NCBI GenBank assembly: GCA_016235455.1
Contig: JACRKZ010000142.1
Span: forward strand, 1 to 15,299
Length of the DNA stretch: 15,299 bases
Direction: 5' to 3'
Origin: Armatimonadota bacterium
Lineage (GTDB): Bacteria > Armatimonadota > UBA10988
Each line of letters opens with the position of its first letter. Position 1 is the stretch's first letter. The position numbers and the translations under genes are program-made. The notes beneath the pieces were generated by a model that had not been told where the DNA came from, made no database searches, and saw only the letters and a list, made by a program, of their open reading frames with translations. Below are positions 1-15,299 of the stretch, in pieces.

Positions 1-663
1 GCGCCGGCGGTCATTGAGGGCTGGCTAGGTCGGCGGCGTCGCCGAGAGCGCTACTATGTGGAATCGCCTACGGGGGCGCCGCCGGCGGTACGCCGTGAGC
101 CCATCGTTGGGCAAGGCATGGCAAGAGGCGAGTGGGTGTGGGGCACTACGGGTGGTGCCCTCCTCGGCCTGTTCATTGTCGGCACCGGAATGGAGTCTGC
201 GGGCCTTTGGCTGACCTCGGTGGCCGGATGGGCGGTGTGGATCGTGGCCCGGTCTCTGTGGGCGAACACATCGCCGCAAGCGCAAGGTTGGGGCGATGCG
301 ACGAGGTCCGATCCGCCGCGTTCCCGATGGGTGACGCTCAAAGCCGATGGCACAGCGCTCACGCTGCTTGACGGCGTCTATGACGGGCGACGACTCTGGG
401 CGGATCTCGTTGCCGTGCGTGGCGCAGCCAAAGAGCTTGTGCTGACCTACCACCGCTCCGGCGATCTCCACGTCCCAAGGCCCGCGCGGTACCGTAGTCA
501 GTTGCTGGACAATGTGCAAAGCATCGCCGAACGTGTCCTGGCGGCGCGCGCGGCCCAGATGGCGCGGGACGAGGCGGCGCTGGAGCGCATGGAACGCGGT
601 CTATCGCGCCCCGAGGACGACGAGCACGCCGACCGCGGGCTGAGCGTCACCGACGGCGGATAG
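1..663 (+). CDS. Array paralog 1 (5'-partial): membrane protein with putative PH-like domain and RGLS-x9-RGLS tail
   Basis: The frame of ORF 58..663 is open back to base 1 (APAVIEGWLGRRRRRERYYVESP...). PAVIEGWLG matches the family N-terminal motif, so the true start is upstream of the window. Two hydrophobic segments; ends MERGLSRPEDDEHADRGLSVTDGG. Confidence 0.75.
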   Translation, partial: APAVIEGWLGRRRRRERYYVESPTGAPPAVRREPIVGQGMARGEWVWGTTGGALLGLFIVGTGMESAGLWLTSVAGWAVWIVARSLWANTSPQAQGWGDATRSDPPRSRWVTLKADGTALTLLDGVYDGRRLWADLVAVRGAAKELVLTYHRSGDLHVPRPARYRSQLLDNVQSIAERVLAARAAQMARDEAALERMERGLSRPEDDEHADRGLSVTDGG

Positions 664-965
664 GCCCAGGCGGGGTCTGTTGTCCCGGCTTCAGCCGGCT
701 GGCGCTTGCATGGGTCGGTCAGTGCCGCTGGTGCCGGTACGCCAATCTCCAGATTGGCATCGGGTCGCAGACCCGACATTCCCAACGGCGTCGCCATCCG
801 GTCGGCCGCCGGCTGCGCCTCTGGCCGATGCCACGCGGGAGCGTACCGGTCCGGCACGGGCGGCGCTGACCGACCCACGGAAGCGCCATCGGGCTATAGC
901 CGGGACAACGAACCAGACCAGCCCCGCGAGGAGACCCGCGCCGCGCGCCGAACCGTCGGCCATGG
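604..965 (+). repeat. Junction direct repeat A, copy 1 (gene tail + palindromic element + next start)
   Basis: Aligns by eye with 1640-1910, from TCGCGCCCCGAG through the TAG stop and the palindrome to GGCCATGG. Confidence 0.9.
679..909. repeat. Nested REP/REPIN-like palindromic element, long form
   Basis: 59-bp inverted arms 679-737 and 851-909 (50/59 complementary; GTTGTCCCGGCT...AGCCGGGACAAC). They enclose hairpins GCCAATCT-CC-AGATTGGC (741-758) and TCGGGTC-GCA-GACCCGA (760-776). Confidence 0.8.
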
Positions 966-1699
966 ATGATGGGGGACCGCGACGACCGATGCAAGCAGAG
1001 CACGATCACGCCTGGCTGCCGCCGGCCGAACAGATTGCGTCCTGGCTGGGCGACTTTGGCTCGGTGGCACTGCGGCGCGAACTCACGCCACGCGAGCGCG
1101 AGTCGCTGCCGCTGCCCGAGTTCGAGTTGGCCAGGCGCACGGCGTCGATGGGCTCCTACCTGGCCGCTGGGTTTGTGCTGGTCACCGGCCTGTTGCTGCT
1201 GCTGGCGCTGGCGGCATCGGGCTTGGGCCGGGCCCAGTTGGTGTGGTGTGTCGTGATGCTCGTCCTGGCCGCAGCCACGCTACTGCCGCCGCGCGTACAC
1301 AGCGTCATCCTCGCGCGCGGGGGTCAGGTGCTGCCGCGCGCGCGACACACCGTCCAGGCCCAGTGGGGCGACATGCCGGTCGTCGTCGAGACCACGGTCT
1401 CGGCCGATGCCCGCGGGATCCGCCTGGCCACCGAAGGCTCCGAGCAGACCCTGGCCTGGGAGGAGCTGGTGGAGGTGCAGCACCACGGCGAGGACGCCCT
1501 GCTGTGCTCGGAGTATGGCGAGGCGCTGCGCCTACCCCGAACCTCGGCGCTGCGACCGGTGCTCCATGCCGCTGGCCATGTGGTGGCGGCCCGCGCCGCG
1601 CATGACCAGGCCGCAGCGGCGCGCCTGGAGCGCGGGCTGTCGCGCCCCGAGCACGACGAGCACGCCGACCGCGGGCTGAGCGTCACCGGCGGCGGTTAG
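962..1699 (+). CDS. Array paralog 2: membrane protein with putative PH-like domain and RGLS-x9-RGLS tail
   Basis: ATG 962 is positionally homologous to ATG 1907 (both in GGCCATGG, both with Trp at residue 18); ATG 989 is an alternative. Motif AWLPPAEQIASWLGDFG, TM hairpin, ADARGIRL...LAWEEL...EALRLP, tail LERGLSRPEHDEHADRGLSVTGGG. Confidence 0.8.
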   Translation: MDDGGPRRPMQAEHDHAWLPPAEQIASWLGDFGSVALRRELTPRERESLPLPEFELARRTASMGSYLAAGFVLVTGLLLLLALAASGLGRAQLVWCVVMLVLAAATLLPPRVHSVILARGGQVLPRARHTVQAQWGDMPVVVETTVSADARGIRLATEGSEQTLAWEELVEVQHHGEDALLCSEYGEALRLPRTSALRPVLHAAGHVVAARAAHDQAAAARLERGLSRPEHDEHADRGLSVTGGG

Positions 1700-1910
1700 G
1701 CTCGGGCGCGGGTTCGTTGTCCCGGCTTCAGCCGGCTGGCGCTTTCATGGGTCGGTCAGTGCCGCTGGTGCCGGCACGCCAATCTCCAGATTGGCATCGG
1801 GTCGCAGACCCGACATGCCCGACGGCGTCGCCATCCGGCCAAAGCCGGGACAACGAACCAGACCAGCCCCGCGAGGAGACCCGTACCTCGCGCCGAATCC
1901 GCGGCCATGG
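1640..1910 (+). repeat. Junction direct repeat A, copy 2 (92 bp shorter in the palindrome)
   Basis: Matches 604-965 except that 92 bp between two CGCCATC sites of copy 1 is absent. Confidence 0.9.
1711..1859. repeat. Nested REP/REPIN-like palindromic element, short form
   Basis: Perfect 17-bp terminal inverted repeat GGTTCGTTGTCCCGGCT (1711-1727) / AGCCGGGACAACGAACC (1843-1859), with the same two inner hairpins as 679-909. Confidence 0.8.
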
Positions 1911-2659
1911 CAGCCGGGGGCATGGGACAACCAGGGCAGCGCGATGATGGCGAGGCGTGGATGCCGTCGCCCGAGCAGATCGGCGCCTGGCTGGGTGGCT
2001 TCGACGGCGCGTGGTTTGTACCGCTTCGCCCGCGCGAGCCGTGGGAGCGGGCTTGGCTCGAGCGCCCCAGACCAACGAGCGAGCGTGCCCGGGCGCGCGT
2101 TGCGCTCCTACAGCTGTCGGCGGCGATTGCAGTAGCGACCGCCTTGGCGGGGTGGGCGGCCGCGGCATCCGGAGACCGGGTCCTGGGCACGGTGACCGCT
2201 GTCATGGGAATCAGCTATGTCGTGCTCGCCGTGGCGGCCACTGTTGGCCAAGTCGGTGGTGACGAGCCAAGCAATCGCGCGCCCGCCAAGCGCCAGCGCG
2301 GCCGGAGGCGTGCCAGATTGGCCGCCAGCCCGGCTACGCTGTCCGTGCACGGTGCCGGCAACCATCACTGCCTGCCCTGGAGCTCCCTCACTCGCGTCGA
2401 GACGGACGATGGCGAGACGGTACTGCACTGGTCGGATGGGGTCGTCATCCGCTTGCCAGATGACCAGGGGCTCGAACCCGTCATCAGCGTCGCCCAGCGC
2501 ATCATGGCCGCCCGCGTCGAGCAGGACGACGCTCTGCAAGCGCGCATGGAACGCGGTCTGTCGCGACCCGATGACGACCAGCGCGCCGACCGGGGCATCA
2601 GCCTCATGACTGCCGAGGAACCCGCTGAGCGCGACGAGCGTTCGATGCCAAGGGGCTGA
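1907..2659 (+). CDS. Array paralog 3: membrane protein with putative PH-like domain and RGLS-x9-RGIS tail
   Basis: AWMPSPEQIGAWLGGFDG, two hydrophobic segments, LPWSSLTRVE...VIRLPDDQGLEPVISVAQRI, tail MERGLSRPDDDQRADRGISL. ATG 1922 is an alternative start. Confidence 0.8.
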   Translation: MAAGGMGQPGQRDDGEAWMPSPEQIGAWLGGFDGAWFVPLRPREPWERAWLERPRPTSERARARVALLQLSAAIAVATALAGWAAAASGDRVLGTVTAVMGISYVVLAVAATVGQVGGDEPSNRAPAKRQRGRRRARLAASPATLSVHGAGNHHCLPWSSLTRVETDDGETVLHWSDGVVIRLPDDQGLEPVISVAQRIMAARVEQDDALQARMERGLSRPDDDQRADRGISLMTAEEPAERDERSMPRG

Positions 2660-2696
2660 CGATGCACCACGAACAACCCGCCTGGCCGCCGACGCC
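2612..2696 (+). repeat. Junction direct repeat B, copy 1 (85 bp)
   Basis: Identical to 3840-3924; encodes AEEPAERDERSMPRG-stop-CG-MHHEQPAWPPT. Confidence 0.95.
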
Positions 2697-2829
2697 GGAA
2701 CAGATTGAGTCCTGGCTGGACGACTTTGGCCCGGTGGCGCTACGGCGCGAAGTCACGCGGCCGGAGCACGACGAGCGCGCCGAGCGCGGGCTGAGCGTCA
2801 CCGGCGGCGCGGTGAGGGCAAGTCGGTGA
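2662..2829 (+). CDS. 55-aa mini-paralog (internally deleted array member; small protein or pseudogene)
   Basis: Hand translation: MHHEQPAWPPTPEQIESWLDDFGPVALRREVTRPEHDERAERGLSVTGGAVRASR*. The family N-motif is fused in frame to the C-tail. Its TGA overlaps the next GTG start (GTGA, 2826-2829). Confidence 0.65.
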   Translation: MHHEQPAWPPTPEQIESWLDDFGPVALRREVTRPEHDERAERGLSVTGGAVRASR

Positions 2830-3887
2830 CACAACGGCCGTGTGGTACCCACCGAACTGCGCGCTGGCCGGTCGGCCCCGCGCAGTTCTGCCACTGGCTG
2901 GCCGCTGAGGGCGCCGTGGTGACCGACTTACGGCGGAGCGGGCGCTCGCGCGACGACGCCGGCCCGAGCCCGTGGCTGGCCGCGATTGTTGAGCCCCCGG
3001 CTGCGGCGCGGTCGGGTCATCTGCGGATCACCATCGGTTCGGAATCCGTCCATTTCGACGGGCTACCTCAGAGCCGCTCGGTGTGCTGGGCCAATGTGGT
3101 CGGCGTTTGGCGGCGACATGGCGTGGCATTGGTGGATCTGGCCGACGGCCAGTCAGTGCAGTTGCCCGCGAACGAGCACACCGAGCCGGTCCTGCGCGTG
3201 ATCGAGCGAATTGCCCGGTTGCGCGAGACCTCGTGCCCTGCCGCCCGCGTGCCGGCTAATACGTGGGTCCCGGATGCTGCGCTGGCCAGCCAGTGGCTAC
3301 GGATCGCCGCTGTGGCTGACGAGGATCTCGACCGACGGGTCGGCAGGCGAGCCAACGGCACGGCTTGGTTGCTCGCCGTCACCATCCTCGCTACCATCGC
3401 GGTGCTGCTGTGCCCCGGTGCCGTGACGCCCGGGCGGTGGTGGGCCATGGGCAGTACGGTCGCGCTCGTAGCCATCGCCGTTGCGTCTGGTGCCCGTCGA
3501 ACGTCAGTCGCACCGGCCCAAGCTCCCCTGGTCGACCTTGCGGGCATCGTGGCAACCGATGAGGCGATGGTGTTCTCGCGGGGCGAGCGGACGGTTCGCC
3601 TGGCCTACGCAGACATCGTCAGGGTCGAACACGACGCTAGCATCGCGGCCATCGTCCTGCACGGCGGGCGCAGGCTCAGGCTGCCAAGGCGTGGGGCCCT
3701 GGAGCCGGTGATCGCCGTGGCGCAACGAATCGTCGACGAGCGCCAGCGGCTGGCGGCGCTGGTGGATGCTGATCAGGAGCGCGGCCTGTCGCCGGCAGGG
3801 CTGCACGGATCGGCCGACCGCGGCTTGAGCCGCCTGGCCGCCGAGGAACCCGCTGAGCGCGACGAGCGTTCGATGCCAAGGGGCTGA
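2826..3887 (+). CDS. Array paralog 4: longer member with two PH-like units and RGLS-x9-RGLS tail
   Basis: Two copies of the W...WL motif and two of the LP...EPV helix motif, with a TM hairpin between them. Tail QERGLSPAGLHGSADRGLSRL. GAGG at 2814-2817 precedes the GTG; start uncertain. Confidence 0.75.
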   Translation: MTQRPCGTHRTARWPVGPAQFCHWLAAEGAVVTDLRRSGRSRDDAGPSPWLAAIVEPPAAARSGHLRITIGSESVHFDGLPQSRSVCWANVVGVWRRHGVALVDLADGQSVQLPANEHTEPVLRVIERIARLRETSCPAARVPANTWVPDAALASQWLRIAAVADEDLDRRVGRRANGTAWLLAVTILATIAVLLCPGAVTPGRWWAMGSTVALVAIAVASGARRTSVAPAQAPLVDLAGIVATDEAMVFSRGERTVRLAYADIVRVEHDASIAAIVLHGGRRLRLPRRGALEPVIAVAQRIVDERQRLAALVDADQERGLSPAGLHGSADRGLSRLAAEEPAERDERSMPRG

Positions 3888-3924
3888 CGATGCACCACGA
3901 ACAACCCGCCTGGCCGCCGACGCC
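3840..3924 (+). repeat. Junction direct repeat B, copy 2 (85 bp)
   Basis: Identical to 2612-2696. Confidence 0.95.
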
Positions 3925-4630
3925 CGACCAGATCGCCCGGTGGCTGGACGGGTTCGAGCAAGCCACGCACAGCCCCGCGCCACCTCACGCCGACCGGCCC
4001 GCCGCGCCGCCGCTATCCGCGGGCGCGGTAGCCCTCGTCGTGTCGGCCGCAGCGGTCGTAGCGGTTGTTGTCTACGGCTGCGTCACCGGGCTGCTGGGCG
4101 TCCTGCACGGCATTGGGCCGGCCGTGCCGTTGATCGTGATCCTCGCCTTCGCGCTGATCTCGGCCATCGGGCGGATGGTTGAGTTCTGGACCCCGCCGTG
4201 GTCGCCCGAGTCGTCTGGCGTGGACCTGTCGGGTTGTGCCCGGTGGCTGGGCGGATGGTTGTCACCTGTGTGGTCAGCCGGGCGCCTCGGTCAGGCAGAC
4301 CACCCGCATGCCGACGCTCTGCCGGTCACCGTGCTGGCCGACGCGCAGGGCATCGAGGTCCGTACGGGCACCACCGCGCAGCGCGAGGCCTGGCTGGAAC
4401 TGATGTCGGTCCAGGACCATGGCACTGCACTCGTGCTGGTGTTCGAGTATGGCGAGGCTCTGCGCGTGCCACGCGAGGACGTCTTCGAGCCCGTGTTGAG
4501 CACCGCGCGCCACGTCGCCGCCGCCCGCGCCGCGCGGCAGGACGCGGTTCGGGACGACATGGAGCACGGCCTGTCGCGCGCGGATCTGCCGGTCGACGCC
4601 AGCCGGGGACTCAGTCGTAGAGAGCACTGA
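3890..4630 (+). CDS. Array paralog 5: membrane protein with putative PH-like domain and HGLS-x9-RGLS tail
   Basis: AWPPTPDQIARWLDGFE, two long hydrophobic helices, ADAQGIEV...AWLEL...EYGEALRVP, tail MEHGLSRADLPVDASRGLSRREH. Confidence 0.8.
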   Translation: MHHEQPAWPPTPDQIARWLDGFEQATHSPAPPHADRPAAPPLSAGAVALVVSAAAVVAVVVYGCVTGLLGVLHGIGPAVPLIVILAFALISAIGRMVEFWTPPWSPESSGVDLSGCARWLGGWLSPVWSAGRLGQADHPHADALPVTVLADAQGIEVRTGTTAQREAWLELMSVQDHGTALVLVFEYGEALRVPREDVFEPVLSTARHVAAARAARQDAVRDDMEHGLSRADLPVDASRGLSRREH

Positions 4631-6136: not shown

Positions 6137-7375
6137 ATGGCAGACACCCTCTCCACCCATGACCTCGACATCCTCCGGCGCCTCGCCGCGCGCAAGGCCG
6201 AGATCGCCCACGACCCCGTCAACGTCGAACGCCGCCGCGCCTGGCTGGCGCACGATGCCGGCGGCGACAGCCGGCCCATGGTGCTGGCCGAATCGGGCGG
6301 CGTCCGCGACGCCCAGCGGCCCCTGGTGCCCACGCTCGAATGCGCCGACGGCTGGGCCCGCGGCGTCGAAGCCGGCCTGCGCGGCGAGATCCTGCGCTTC
6401 GAGGAGCTGCGCGACGACCACGTGGTCGAGCCGGTGCTCAACGTCGGCTGGCACGTCGCCACCAGCGACTACGGCGTGCAGGCCGTGGTGCACCAGGGCG
6501 GCGATGCCCAGACCATGGGCTCGCGCTCGTGGGAGGCGCCCATCACCGACCTGGATCGCGACTTCCACCGACTGCGCCCGCGCACCTTCAGCGTCGACCG
6601 CGACGCCACGCTGGCGGCCAAGGCGCGGCTGGAGCGCGTGTTCGACGGCCTGCTGCCGGTGCGCCTGCGTGGCGGGTTCTACTGGACCATGGGCATGACC
6701 TGGGTGGCCATCGACCTGATCGGCCTCGAAGGCCTGATGCTGGCCATGTACGACAACCCCGCCGGCCTGCACCGGCTGATGGCCTTCCTGCGCGACGACC
6801 ACCTGGCCTTCTCCGCCTGGCTCGAAGCCGAGGGCCTGTATACGCTCAACAATGAGAACGACTACATCGGCTCGGGCTCCGAGGGTTACACCGCCGACCT
6901 GGCCGCCGACGGGCCAGCGCGCGCGCGCGACCTGTGGGTGCTGCTGGAGTCGCAGGAAACGGTCGGTGTCAGCCCCGCGCTGTTCGAGGAGTTCGTCTTC
7001 CCCTACCAACAGACCCTCGCCGAGCGCTTCGGCCGGGTCTACTACGGCTGTTGCGAGCCGGTCGACAGCCGCTGGCACATCCTGCGGCGCCTGCCCAACC
7101 TGGCGCGCCTGTCGGTCTCGCCCTGGTCCAACCAGGAGGCCATGGCCGAGCTGCTGGGCCGCGACTACGTCTTCTCGCGCAAGCCCAACCCGACGCTGAT
7201 CAGCACCGCCCGCTTCGACGAGGCCGCCATCCGCGCCGACCTGCGGCAGACGCTGGCCACCGCGCGCGGCTGCCGGCTCGAGATCATCATGAAGGACGTG
7301 CACACGCTGCACAACGAGCCGGGCCGGCTGGCGCGGTGGGTGGCGATGGCTCGCGAAGAGATAGATCGCGCGTAA
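6137..7375 (+). CDS. URO-D/methyltransferase-like TIM-barrel protein, function unknown
   Basis: GLEGLMLAMYDNP..LHRLM, SQETVGVSPALFEEFVFPYQ, YYGCCEP, SVSPW and SRKPNP resemble the uroporphyrinogen decarboxylase-like superfamily. Not recognisable as true HemE. Confidence 0.7.
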   Translation: MADTLSTHDLDILRRLAARKAEIAHDPVNVERRRAWLAHDAGGDSRPMVLAESGGVRDAQRPLVPTLECADGWARGVEAGLRGEILRFEELRDDHVVEPVLNVGWHVATSDYGVQAVVHQGGDAQTMGSRSWEAPITDLDRDFHRLRPRTFSVDRDATLAAKARLERVFDGLLPVRLRGGFYWTMGMTWVAIDLIGLEGLMLAMYDNPAGLHRLMAFLRDDHLAFSAWLEAEGLYTLNNENDYIGSGSEGYTADLAADGPARARDLWVLLESQETVGVSPALFEEFVFPYQQTLAERFGRVYYGCCEPVDSRWHILRRLPNLARLSVSPWSNQEAMAELLGRDYVFSRKPNPTLISTARFDEAAIRADLRQTLATARGCRLEIIMKDVHTLHNEPGRLARWVAMAREEIDRA

Positions 7376-13143: not shown

Positions 13144-14112
13144 CTACCGTTCGACGCGCACGCGGAATCCCTCGTCGGTACGGCGCTCGATGACCACTTT
13201 GGCGCGGTGCTCGGTGTCGTCGAGCACGGTGCCGTCGAACCACAGCGCGCTGTACAGCACCTCGAACAGGCGCTTCCAGGCGGGATTGCCGTCGTCGGGC
13301 CGGGCCGGGAGCACGCGGATCGGCCCTTCGCCGCGGGCGGTCTCGGACGACACGCGGTACAGCAGCAGCCCCAGCGGGTCATCGTCGCCCACGCCGTGGC
13401 GCCGTGCCTCGACCACATAGGCCTCGTGCGCGCCGATGGGCAACACCACGGCCTTGGTGCCGTCGGCGGTCTCGACCGAGGTCAGGTCGACACTGCCCGA
13501 GCCCTCGCGCAGCACCACCGCCTGGTCCTCGCGCAGCCAGCCCAGCTTGATCTTGTGCCAGACCAGATGGTGGCAGCCGGGCATCTGCAGGCCCATCGGG
13601 TCCCACGCGCCCGAGGCGCGATGCCAATTGGTCTTCTCGTAGAGGTACAGGTCAGGCAGCCCGAACAGATGACCCGTCTCATGCACCAGCGTCTGCCAAC
13701 CCCAGTCGCGCCCGCGGATGTCGTTGCCGAAGGTCACCGCGAAACGAATCTCCCGGCCATCGGCCCGGACGCCCTCCCCCGCGGGGCACAGCAGCGTCGG
13801 CGAGTTCGGCACGCCCGGCGCACGGGAGCCGACGACATACACGACGTCATAGTCGGATAAATCGACCTCATTGTCGACTTTTCCGATGATCTCGGCCACG
13901 TAGCGCCGGTGGGTGTCGAAGCGGGAGCAGTCGTAGTCGCCGGAGGTCGACGTGCGGTCGGTGGGCAGCCAACGGTCGACGCGGTCAACCTTCAGAGTGA
14001 GCCGGCCATAGGAGGCGCGGCGGTAGTAGTCGAGCGCGCCGGGCACGAGGCGGTCGTAGAGCGACTGCGTGGTCTCCTCGACGGTGGTGTCGGGGAAGTG
14101 GGCAAAGAGCAT
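13144..14112 (-). CDS. M6-like (immune inhibitor A-type) zinc metalloprotease; 5' end possibly frameshifted or truncated
   Basis: MLFAHFPD, YYRRASYGRL, HETGHLFGLPDLY (HEXXH), WDPMG, WHKIKLGWL, YVVEAR. No signal peptide in frame. Confidence 0.8.
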   Translation of the reverse strand: MLFAHFPDTTVEETTQSLYDRLVPGALDYYRRASYGRLTLKVDRVDRWLPTDRTSTSGDYDCSRFDTHRRYVAEIIGKVDNEVDLSDYDVVYVVGSRAPGVPNSPTLLCPAGEGVRADGREIRFAVTFGNDIRGRDWGWQTLVHETGHLFGLPDLYLYEKTNWHRASGAWDPMGLQMPGCHHLVWHKIKLGWLREDQAVVLREGSGSVDLTSVETADGTKAVVLPIGAHEAYVVEARRHGVGDDDPLGLLLYRVSSETARGEGPIRVLPARPDDGNPAWKRLFEVLYSALWFDGTVLDDTEHRAKVVIERRTDEGFRVRVER

Positions 14113-14191
14113 GAGCCAGAACTGCCGACGCGGGCATGGCGGTCTCCGGCAGGTGGGTTCGGTGCGGCGGGCGCGAGTCCTGTCGGCTCTG

Positions 14192-14281
14192 GTGGCACCG
14201 GCGTCCCCGCCGGTAGGCGCGGGGTGGCTGGTGCTCGCGCGCGCGGAGCTGGTCGGTCCACCGGCAAGATGCCGGTGCCAC
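14192..14281. repeat. Inverted pair of REP-like elements
   Basis: GTGGCACCGGCGTCCCCGCCGGT (14192-14214) and, on the - strand, GTGGCACCGGCATCTTGCCGGT (14281-14260); each is a short leader plus a hairpin. Confidence 0.75.
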
Positions 14282-14325
14282 GTTGGGGCGATGGCCCTTC
14301 GAGGACCAACCACGACCGACTGAGC

Positions 14326-14404: not shown

Positions 14405-15299
14405 TCACCGCTTGAGCAGCACCTGCACATCGGACCCCGTGGCGTCGTAGTCCAGGTTGCCGGCCGGTCCCGGCGTCACTGCGAAGTCGATGACGGTGCC
14501 CACCTGGGCGTCGACGGGCAGCTCGAAGCGCCGCTCCGTGGGCGTGGTCGGCCCGCCGATGGGCTGGTCGTAGAGCGGCTTGCCGTCGACCAGCACCAAG
14601 ACCGTGCAGCCGTCGCCCTGGCGGTCGCGCTCGAACTGGCCGCGAAGCACCAGTTGGCCGGCGACGGTCGACACCCAGCGGCGGATGGCCCACACGGCCT
14701 TGCCGCCGCGCACCTGCGGGTGCAGCGTGTCGGCGCTGGCGCCGAGGAACGGCAGCGGCCCGGCCCACTGCTCGCCCCACTGGTCGGCCTTGGCCTCGAA
14801 CGGCTGGAAGGCGGCGGGCTGGTACTGTCCCTGATTGGCATCAAAGTACCCGTAGTGCCAGCCCGATTCGCCCTGGGCCTTGGTGGTAAAGTCGGCCGCG
14901 GAATCCGCTACGACGCGGAGCGGGCCGGGCCCCTCGGTCACCTTGGCCACGCGGCCGAGCAGGTAGAACGGCGTGTCGTCGACGGCCAACTCCACTACGC
15001 CGCCCGGTGTGGCCACGGGCGAGCGGTTGCCCATCAGGTCGACCTTGACCAGCCCGTCGGCGCCATCCAGGCGGATGCGGCTGAGGTTGGCGGCCCAGCA
15101 GACGCGCAGTTCCTCGCCGCCGCGGTCGAAGCGCATGACATAGGTGCGCGAGTAGGGCTCCTCGGCCTCGCGGGCGACGAACCGCGCCCCGGCCAGCAGG
15201 CGCACCATGGCGGCCATGGCGCCGTAGGCCGGCGCGGGCGAGTAGGCGCCGCGTGGGTCTTTCGGGTCGTGCACGAGGCCCATGCCCACGAAGTCGTTG
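14405..15299 (-). CDS. 3' part of a putative glycoside hydrolase-like protein with C-terminal beta-sandwich domain (5'-partial)
   Basis: Frame is open to the window edge (NDFVGMGLV...). GLV...PAPAYGA resembles the last strand/helix of clan GH-A barrels, followed by a VADSAADF..QG..GWHYGY...RRWVS...GDG domain. Confidence 0.55.
   Translation of the reverse strand, partial: NDFVGMGLVHDPKDPRGAYSPAPAYGAMAAMVRLLAGARFVAREAEEPYSRTYVMRFDRGGEELRVCWAANLSRIRLDGADGLVKVDLMGNRSPVATPGGVVELAVDDTPFYLLGRVAKVTEGPGPLRVVADSAADFTTKAQGESGWHYGYFDANQGQYQPAAFQPFEAKADQWGEQWAGPLPFLGASADTLHPQVRGGKAVWAIRRWVSTVAGQLVLRGQFERDRQGDGCTVLVLVDGKPLYDQPIGGPTTPTERRFELPVDAQVGTVIDFAVTPGPAGNLDYDATGSDVQVLLKR

Follow-up and report, generated by a model that had tools for sequence, protein, structure and literature searches.

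Why should neighbouring genes of one bacterium keep much the same two ends when the middles of their products can barely be aligned? The question is raised by a tandem array at the start of contig JACRKZ010000142.1 from an Armatimonadota bacterium (assembly GCA_016235455.1). The window analysed here is this entire 15.3-kb contig (15,299 nucleotides, ~70% GC), and the array, made of five co-oriented paralogs (A to E) and a mini open reading frame (mini-ORF), occupies positions 1 to 4630. In a preliminary description, the genes were read as an expanding set of PH-like membrane proteins, perhaps related to YcxB, that dock on a common partner, with immunity or anti-phage defence among the proposed roles. 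Membrane-anchored bacterial PH domains are widespread and almost uncharacterized. Short linear motifs common to unrelated families usually mark a shared interaction, modification or targeting, and motifs of this kind are poorly known in bacteria.

The array is found to belong to a large family that combines a conserved N-terminal motif (N-motif), a hydrophobic hairpin, a PH-like core and a disordered tail with two conserved serines. The same tail ends the products of two unrelated families in the same lineage. The N-motif is better explained as a piece of the predicted PH fold, and the tail as the candidate site for a common partner.

The array and its paralogs

All six ORFs lie on the + strand, and the motif strings quoted for them in the preliminary description are present. 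Contigs of this genome are cited by working numbers, the window being C98.

1–663, + strand: paralog A, 220 amino acids (aa), 5′ end truncated by the contig start; N-motif IEGWLG at 13–30, weak transmembrane (TM) hairpin, PH-like core, tail RGLSRPEDDEHADRGLS at 595–645
962–1699, + strand: paralog B, 245 aa from the ATG at 962; N-motif at 1034–1051, TM hairpin, PH-like core, tail at 1631–1681
1907–2659, + strand: paralog C, 250 aa; N-motif at 1979–1996, TM hairpin, PH core (Pfam bPH_6), tail at 2552–2602, then the extension AEEPAERDERSMPRG
2662–2829, + strand: mini-ORF, 55 aa; N-motif at 2704–2721 fused straight to a single RGLS copy at 2785–2796
2826–3887, + strand: paralog D, 353 aa, two modules; tail at 3780–3830 with the same extension as in C
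2886–2903, + strand: N-motif of the first module of D, followed by a PH-like core without TM hairpin
3285–3302, + strand: weaker motif copy ASQWLR of the second module of D, followed by TM hairpin, PH-like core and tail
3890–4630, + strand: paralog E, 246 aa; N-motif at 3932–3949, disordered tail at 4565–4615

Paralogy within the window is far above chance. With E as query against its own genome, B was returned at an E-value of 5.6e-20, C at 4.1e-8, the mini-ORF at 1.4e-7, D at 3.0e-7 and A at 7.4e-7. The contrast between conserved ends and barely alignable middles is real: mean pairwise identity per 10-residue block across the five window modules is 0.39 at the N-motif and 0.40–0.62 over the last 50 residues, against 0.08–0.28 in the middle. 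The motif is followed by a pair of hydrophobic helices in B, C, the second module of D and E; the pair is weaker in A and absent from the mini-ORF. At the other end, the doubled tail of A to E keeps a constant spacing of 9 residues from the first Ser to the second Arg, with HGLS as the first copy in E, RGIS as the second copy in C and a single copy in the mini-ORF. GC content by codon position (0.75–0.86 at the third position, GC3; 0.52–0.58 at the second, GC2) is consistent with coding in the listed frames. The A/B and B/C gaps measure 200–300 bp and each holds a long palindromic repeat, and C, the mini-ORF, D and E are spaced by gaps or overlaps of 2–4 bases. A TTG start at 680 was considered for B and rejected, as it falls within the palindromic intergenic repeat.

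A PH-like core behind a membrane hairpin

The PH-like fold expected from the preliminary description is supported by both sequence and structure comparisons. In Pfam, bPH_6 (PF10756, cut-off 22 bits) matches C at 23.9 bits, the other five of the six window proteins having no listed match; it is above cut-off in three of ten other paralogs (28.6–32.5 bits) and is found at E ≤ 1e-3 in 31 of 70 public relatives. No other Pfam family recurs, and none matches over the full length. The YcxB-like identity was not borne out, the corresponding model (PF14317, cut-off 23.3 bits) giving sub-threshold matches only: 16.5 bits in one of the ten paralogs and E 9.8e-4 in one of the 70 relatives. The AlphaFold2 (AF2) model of E, built from a 27-row alignment, has a mean predicted local distance difference test score (pLDDT) of 77.4 and a predicted template-modelling score (pTM) of 0.62. 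It consists of a helix (residues 12–19) and a strand (24–27) at pLDDT 95–98, TM helices at 44–69 and 78–100, a low-confidence linker at 100–138, six strands between 146 and 194, a helix at 197–227 and an unstructured stretch over the last 20 residues. When this model was compared with the PDB using Foldseek, the first matches were FERM-F3, PTB and PH domains (best E 4.7e-3). In a VIA-align comparison with 48,161 chains, nearly all of the top 50 had the PH superfold (PH, PTB, GRAM, FERM-F3), the best at Z 7.6 with a root-mean-square deviation of 2.6 over 78 residues; the split PH domains 2rlo (Z 6.6) and 1z87 (Z 5.7) also appear there. A sequence search of the PDB with the PH profile gave a best E of only 0.086. 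Altogether, E is predicted to have a PH-like superfold, with a seven-stranded bent sheet and a C-terminal helix cap, at middling scores.

The same models bear on how the N-motif relates to the core. Structural alignments to PH domains begin at model residues 11–23 and end near 212–223 with the hairpin skipped, and therefore use both the N-terminal strand and the C-terminal core. Complex prediction of E residues 1–35 with residues 139–246 gave a score of 0.54 against 0.02 for the best of three controls, above a mark passed by most of 80 solved complexes (58) and by very few of 110 mismatched pairs (2), although scores of at most 0.60 account for only 7 of those 80 solved complexes plus both passing mismatches. 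Across the complex runs at least 86% of the contacts agree, and the partner pLDDT is at least 67. In the first module of D, the motif leads straight into the PH-like core. The N-motif thus modelled appears to be the helix and first strand of the PH fold, parted from the rest of the domain by the membrane hairpin, and its conservation is more likely structural than a matter of partner docking. In the 24 of 27 modules with two clear helices, Lys and Arg residues number 53 in the N-terminal flank, 17 in the loop (median length 10 residues) and 56 in the C-terminal flank. This distribution fits a topology in which both protein ends are cytoplasmic and the hairpin loop points out.

The double-serine tail in the PH family

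The tail has the consensus (A/G)LS-x9-10-(E/D)RGLS. Across 27 modules that are otherwise 17–37% identical, L228, S229 and S242 (numbered as in E) are invariant and R239 is nearly so. Conservation extends to public sequences: among the best 150 public matches, 142 terminate in R-[GASW]-[LIV]-[ST], with R in 100%, G in 92%, L in 87% and S in 99% of the 142. Of these, 79% have an acidic residue just before this ending, which is followed by a median of 6 residues. The first L-S in the best public matches mostly stands 9–10 residues upstream of RGLS. Tails are disordered in the AF2 models of both E (pLDDT ~61–63) and a HEAT-repeat protein that carries the same ending (below 50), described in the next section.

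The tail is conserved at the peptide level, because its invariant serines use both serine codon families. Of 40 tails, 34 have a TCN codon at the first serine and 6 have AGY; at the second, 33 have AGY and 7 have TCN. Codon choice at the Leu, Arg and Gly positions varies as well. Two serines spaced in this way, each with an acidic residue three positions after it and, in many members, an Arg three positions before it, are what would be expected of a modification or docking site, and the tail may be such a site.

The same tail on unrelated families

The tail is not confined to PH-like proteins. When a hidden Markov model (HMM) of the tail alone was run against all 83,052 ORFs of the genome, every match at E < 1e-3 was a family member except for the following: a fragment at the end of a contig, a pair of divergent ORFs (on C90 and C135) that read as PH-like and had been missed by the family HMM, two of the genes in a tandem array of five on C7, and a gene on C145. 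The last two kinds define families of their own.

C7, 11854–16865, − strand: five tandem HEAT-repeat genes whose products end in a doubled RxLS...RGLS tail
C145, 65888–67030, + strand: single-copy gene of a multi-pass membrane protein with the same tail

In the C7 proteins R-[AS]-L-S and R-G-L-S are invariant (5 of 5). A profile of the five proteins matched alphaRep HEAT-like chains in the PDB at E 4.3e-30, and the AF2 model is all-helical with a pLDDT of 89.4; the family is one of HEAT repeats by these measures, with Pfam HEAT_2 scoring 14.6–23.3 bits, below its cut-off of 27.7. Tailed HEAT proteins occur in all five related genomes of the window's taxonomic family, again from tandem genes. 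Among 14 HEAT ORFs examined there, the doubled motif is terminal in 12, the remaining two being either incomplete or proteins of another kind. When 300 other genomes of the phylum were searched with the HEAT profile, only generic HEAT-repeat stretches were matched outside the window's taxonomic family, not the tail. The C145 protein contains repeated G-Q-x-A-x-G stretches and has no Pfam match, and nothing usable was returned for it from the Protein Atlas. Its gene begins 4 bases past a gene for a 1088-aa protein with an Ig-like (He_PIG) domain. A single-copy protein of this type, ~45% identical, is present in four of the five related genomes with the tail kept in all four, and the C145 gene has no flanking genes within 1.5 kb in common with these relatives.

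All 6 genomes of the taxonomic family thus encode both tailed PH and tailed HEAT proteins, and neither was found with the tail elsewhere among the genomes searched. The tail is portable across three families and lineage-restricted within that sample. The proposal of docking on a common partner can now be divided: it is strengthened for the tail, now that the same ending is known from two unrelated families of the lineage, and weakened for the N-motif, which is modelled as a PH helix and strand.

Size and distribution of the family

The window copies were used to build an HMM, which was iterated on ORFs from all six frames of the 6.5-Mb genome. It recovered about 70 PH-like modules, spread over some 40 ORFs (the last iteration gave 43). 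Members lie in tandem on contigs C120, C167, C114, C3 and C132. Because many are at contig ends, the true copy number is probably higher. More distant members have one to three additional PH-like modules ahead of the last one. In a three-module member (C120, 245–1759, − strand), a tail-like ALS...RGVS is internal, between modules two and three, which suggests a fusion of once separate genes.

Relatives are numerous in public data. A profile of 27 modules, searched against public protein clusters at 50% identity, matched 1867 at E ≤ 1e-3, 286 at E ≤ 1e-10 and 41 at E ≤ 1e-30; 23 of the best 150 clusters are proteins of this very genome. In 300 further genomes of the phylum, matches to the PH profile reach the tail positions only in the five genomes of the window's taxonomic family, where they are often tandem, and in 28 other genomes they cover the hairpin-plus-core part only. 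The claim that no named family covers the motif pair held up in every search made for a name. Ten public clusters were looked up and none was informatively named (two 'hypothetical protein', eight unnamed). NCBIfam gave two chance-level rows for one of ten proteins and nothing full-length. With E as query, a word-based homology search returned E alone, and a Protein Atlas search returned unnamed clusters only, one of which (37% YcxB members) scored 0.89. A search of genome contigs with a small family alignment confirmed no relative, and in a limited literature search no description of the family, the pre-hairpin motif or the double-serine tail was found.

Age of the paralogs and possible exchange between genes

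The preliminary description spoke of an expanding set. The family is indeed large and expanded, with its ~40 ORFs, and rapid expansion is doubtful in view of the old paralogs in a tree of 136 modules. In this tree (FastTree, many forks weakly supported), the four window members are scattered over more than one clade: B is sister to a paralog on contig C65 and C to one on C134, sequences from other sources are interleaved, and terminal branches are 0.6–2 changes per site long. The window paralogs appear to be old because of this placement outside a single clade, the interleaved outside sequences and the long end branches.

DNA self-comparison of the window gives a different picture for the gene junctions, which alone are alike (76–95%), the gene bodies having no detectable similarity except for one 68% stretch between B and E. 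Three of the matching junctions are as follows.

562–801 against 1598–1838: junction match, 90% identical
2585–2722 against 3813–3950: junction match, 89% identical
884–1056 against 1829–2001: junction match, 76% identical

Such near-identical junction DNA suggests local sequence exchange or partial duplication. In the mini-ORF, the 5′ part is 89% identical to that of E and the remainder is 84–93% identical to the N-terminal and tail DNA of B, with the sequence right after the N-motif joined to the second half of the tail. From these identities, the mini-ORF looks like an in-frame internal deletion derivative of a B/E-like gene.

Two of the intergenic spaces are occupied by palindromes.

674–914, no strand assigned: long imperfect palindrome between A and B, a dispersed repeat that is not family-specific
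1711–1859, no strand assigned: shorter second copy of the palindrome; 1710–1838 is 95% identical to 673–801

RNA folding of 670–920 gave a single hairpin of −174 kcal/mol (z −11.5 against shuffles). Across the genome the palindrome recurs at 37 loci, distributed over 28 contigs and with a median length of 132 bp; only 4 of these loci are near family genes, and copies also lie just 3′ of family genes on C65 and C12. An Rfam scan of the window, palindrome included, gave no match. The repeat looks like a miniature inverted-repeat transposable element (MITE) or a repetitive extragenic palindromic (REP) element.

Surroundings of the array

As had been noted, the array runs off the left edge of the contig, and the first 150 bases of the window overlap no other contig of the genome. 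In two public runs, one assembled contig each reaches further left than the window, by ~1.67 and ~1.79 kb. Four contig joints in the public runs were considered as structural variants and rejected, their shorter sides being 21–30 letters long and within repeated tails; they were treated as assembly-graph links. In a freshwater metagenome run from a different study (X5), short low-depth contigs match separate array pieces within 218–4093 at 90–100%; one 253-base piece, 1383–1635, is without differences, and most of the contigs (share 0.94) continue into unlike sequence. These contigs may come from a related population with a differently arranged array; they are compatible with mosaic relatives and too thin to use.

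Downstream of the array, the window encodes a NUDIX hydrolase, a DUF169 protein, a beta-helix protein, a glyoxalase, a GFO/IDH/MocA oxidoreductase and a PQQ-repeat phosphoesterase. It also holds an ORF at 6137–7375 (+ strand; 412 aa) with a GC3 of 0.94, a strong coding signal and no Pfam match. Relatives of this ORF number 1–7 copies at E ≤ 1e-20 in each of five related genomes, making it another unnamed multi-copy family, and the nearest reference genomes are only ~45% identical in this protein. The ORFs at 13144–14313 and 14405–15289 (− strand) have no Pfam match either. Elsewhere in the genome, DUF1559 (PF07596) has 81 matches above cut-off, against none in 14 control genomes, and one DUF1559 gene with an N-terminal methylation motif sits between two PH paralogs on contig C52. 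DUF1559 is expanded in Planctomycetota, a group of unusual cell biology, and from this count the genome would probably be read as planctomycetal.

Possible function and alternative explanations

It is proposed that the array products reside in the inner membrane and represent one large family restricted to this lineage. Each of their core modules would be a bacterial PH domain with a membrane hairpin inserted in it, in the order N-terminal helix and strand (hydrophobic-x-x-W-L-G), two TM helices, then six strands and a C-terminal helix. Both ends would be cytoplasmic, and the PH domain would be held against the membrane. The full proteins would end in the disordered cytoplasmic double-serine tail, acting as a portable short linear motif, and one shared cytoplasmic factor would read or modify this tail through docking, serine modification or processing. 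The PH paralogs would in that case be diversified membrane-anchored scaffolds that display the tail at the membrane. Taken as a whole, with scaffold, split PH domain and commonly read or modified tail, the proposal has about an even chance of being correct.

Several points weigh against this proposal. Around the six PH arrays examined (C98, C120, C167, C166, C114 and C52), the HEAT array and the C145 gene, no conserved neighbour, kinase or protease recurs, and no partner, enzyme or reader of the tail was identified in these neighbourhoods; a partner gene may lie to the left of the window, beyond the contig start. The tail may also have spread to the three families by descent or fusion in one lineage, with no present shared function. 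On the structural side, Foldseek returned nothing at E ≤ 1e-3 for the E model, all VIA-align Z scores are below 8, a range that the tool calls common, and the fold matches are middling. The split PH domain is drawn from model confidence and from a complex score that the tool classes as weak, and the topology is taken from the positive-inside rule.

A broader version of the scaffold proposal can be formulated, in which the lineage would possess a cytoplasmic tagging system of its own. The tail, present on at least three unrelated families and more than 45 genes per genome, would be served by a dedicated reader or enzyme or by PTB-like PH domains, and would tie soluble as well as membrane proteins together in a single network at the membrane. 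This wider system is put forward tentatively, as a possibility more doubtful than probable.

It could also be imagined that the PH domains themselves read the tails in a PTB-like manner, from paralog to paralog or from HEAT protein to PH protein, giving a membrane-bound hetero-oligomeric network in which reader and ligand co-expanded. The top structural neighbours of E include the peptide-binding PTB and FERM-F3 domains, and bacterial PH domains have been described to oligomerize by strand extension at the beta4/beta5 edge, the peptide site of eukaryotic relatives (PMC2817789). Tailed PH and tailed HEAT proteins are, moreover, found together throughout the taxonomic family (6 of 6 genomes), neither being tailed elsewhere among the genomes searched. 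However, co-occurrence within one lineage amounts to a single observation, and the tail is undocked in the monomer model, where it has a pLDDT of ~61–63 and no secondary structure. Direct reading of tails by PH domains is accordingly held to be unlikely.

A role in transport or envelope resistance, similar to that of YdbS/YdbT or DdE/DdF, would have rings of PH proteins aid peptide export or resistance, with the paralogs providing different specificities. The family does have the YdbS/YdbT-type layout, a TM hairpin directly ahead of a predicted cytoplasmic PH domain, sometimes repeated. Such proteins have been proposed as membrane transporters or pores (Xu et al. 2010; PMC2817789), and DdE and DdF are both needed to export a leaderless bacteriocin (PMC8657885). 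Against this stand the lack of any listed bPH_2 (PF03703) match, whether in 16 proteins of this genome (at E ≤ 0.1–1) or in 70 relatives (at E ≤ 1e-3), and the finding that no bacteriocin or ABC-transporter gene adjoins any array examined. Transport would also leave the tail on soluble HEAT-repeat proteins unexplained, and the idea seems improbable for this family.

The suggestion that these genes serve immunity or anti-phage defence within a polymorphic conflict system, their variable middles matching variable toxins or phage proteins, draws on the tandem divergent paralogs with conserved ends and on a left flank that lies outside the contig. None of nine proteins matched defence models in PADLOC-DB 2.0.0 (2023 library, E ≤ 0.01), and no toxin, Rhs, ATPase, nuclease or recombinase gene was seen among the examined neighbours of the six PH arrays. 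Neighbours are ordinary metabolic and glycoside-hydrolase genes: around the five other PH arrays, the HEAT array and the C145 gene they encode glycoside hydrolases, aconitase, acyl-CoA ligase, a deaminase, peroxiredoxin and similar proteins. The paralogs are apparently old, with other-source sequences interleaved in the tree, and all but the short hairpin loop is predicted to be cytoplasmic. A defence role is very unlikely.

Least probable of all, and largely refuted by the codon data, is an explanation at the DNA level, in which the conserved ends would be cassette boundaries, recombination sites or the like and many ORFs would be decaying copies: the junctions are 76–95% identical between unlike gene bodies, the dispersed palindrome lies in two junctions and 3′ of the C65 and C12 paralogs, and the mini-ORF would be a deletion product, but a DNA motif was rejected because the invariant serines switch between TCN and AGY, the other motif codons vary, the tail is kept in 142 of the 150 best public matches and in relatives ~45% identical in other genes, GC3 is of the coding type, and only 4 of the 37 palindrome loci are near family genes.

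Comparison with known systems

The domain class and the hairpin-plus-PH architecture are already known; the family, the pre-hairpin motif and the portable tail are unnamed in Pfam, NCBIfam and PADLOC. Should the tail prove to have no function, the outcome would still be a clean description of a large unnamed family that can be used for annotation. The closest named domain is bPH_6 (PF10756), which resembles the family in sequence over its beta-strand core. It differs in that most members fall below its cut-off and its model covers part of the core, not the N-motif or the tail.

In architecture, the nearest systems are YdbS/YdbT of Bacillus subtilis and DdE/DdF of Enterococcus faecalis (bPH_2/COG3402, COG3428), in which the same TM hairpin precedes a cytoplasmic PH domain, single or repeated, often encoded by adjacent genes (PMC8657885, PMC2817789). 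The family described here differs by the absence of a bPH_2 match and of a bacteriocin or ABC context, and by a far higher copy number (~40 per genome). The available portions of the two sources do not describe the pre-hairpin motif and the double-serine tail for these proteins (PMC8657885, PMC2817789). PHb1 and PHb2 (PF08000; Xu et al. 2010) share the bacterial PH-like fold, and oligomerization via an open strand edge would plausibly be shared as well; they are soluble, unlike the family, and were outside the top 50 rows in both structure searches. Other membrane-bound PH families, DUF304, DUF1200 and DUF2244, appear to be without strand beta1 (Xu et al. 2010, PMC2817789). The present family may show where that strand went.

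PH folds are likewise interrupted in the eukaryotic split PH proteins (PIKE 2rlo, alpha-syntrophin 1z87 and PLC-gamma), and the alignments to 2rlo and 1z87 span both halves of the E model. They have no sequence relationship to the family, in which the predicted insert is a TM hairpin after the first strand. The inserts of the eukaryotic split PH proteins are soluble domains located later in the fold. If true, a PH fold split by a hairpin would fix the orientation of the domain at the membrane.

For the tail, the best parallel is SHOCT (PF09851), for which no Pfam match was found in any family member or relative scanned. Finding the reader of the tail would define a lineage-specific pathway. 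Like the tail, SHOCT is short and portable and is found at the C terminus of many unrelated bacterial architectures, PH proteins included (PMC3581485). It is a small folded domain, whereas the double-serine tail is predicted to be disordered and is confined to one lineage among those searched.

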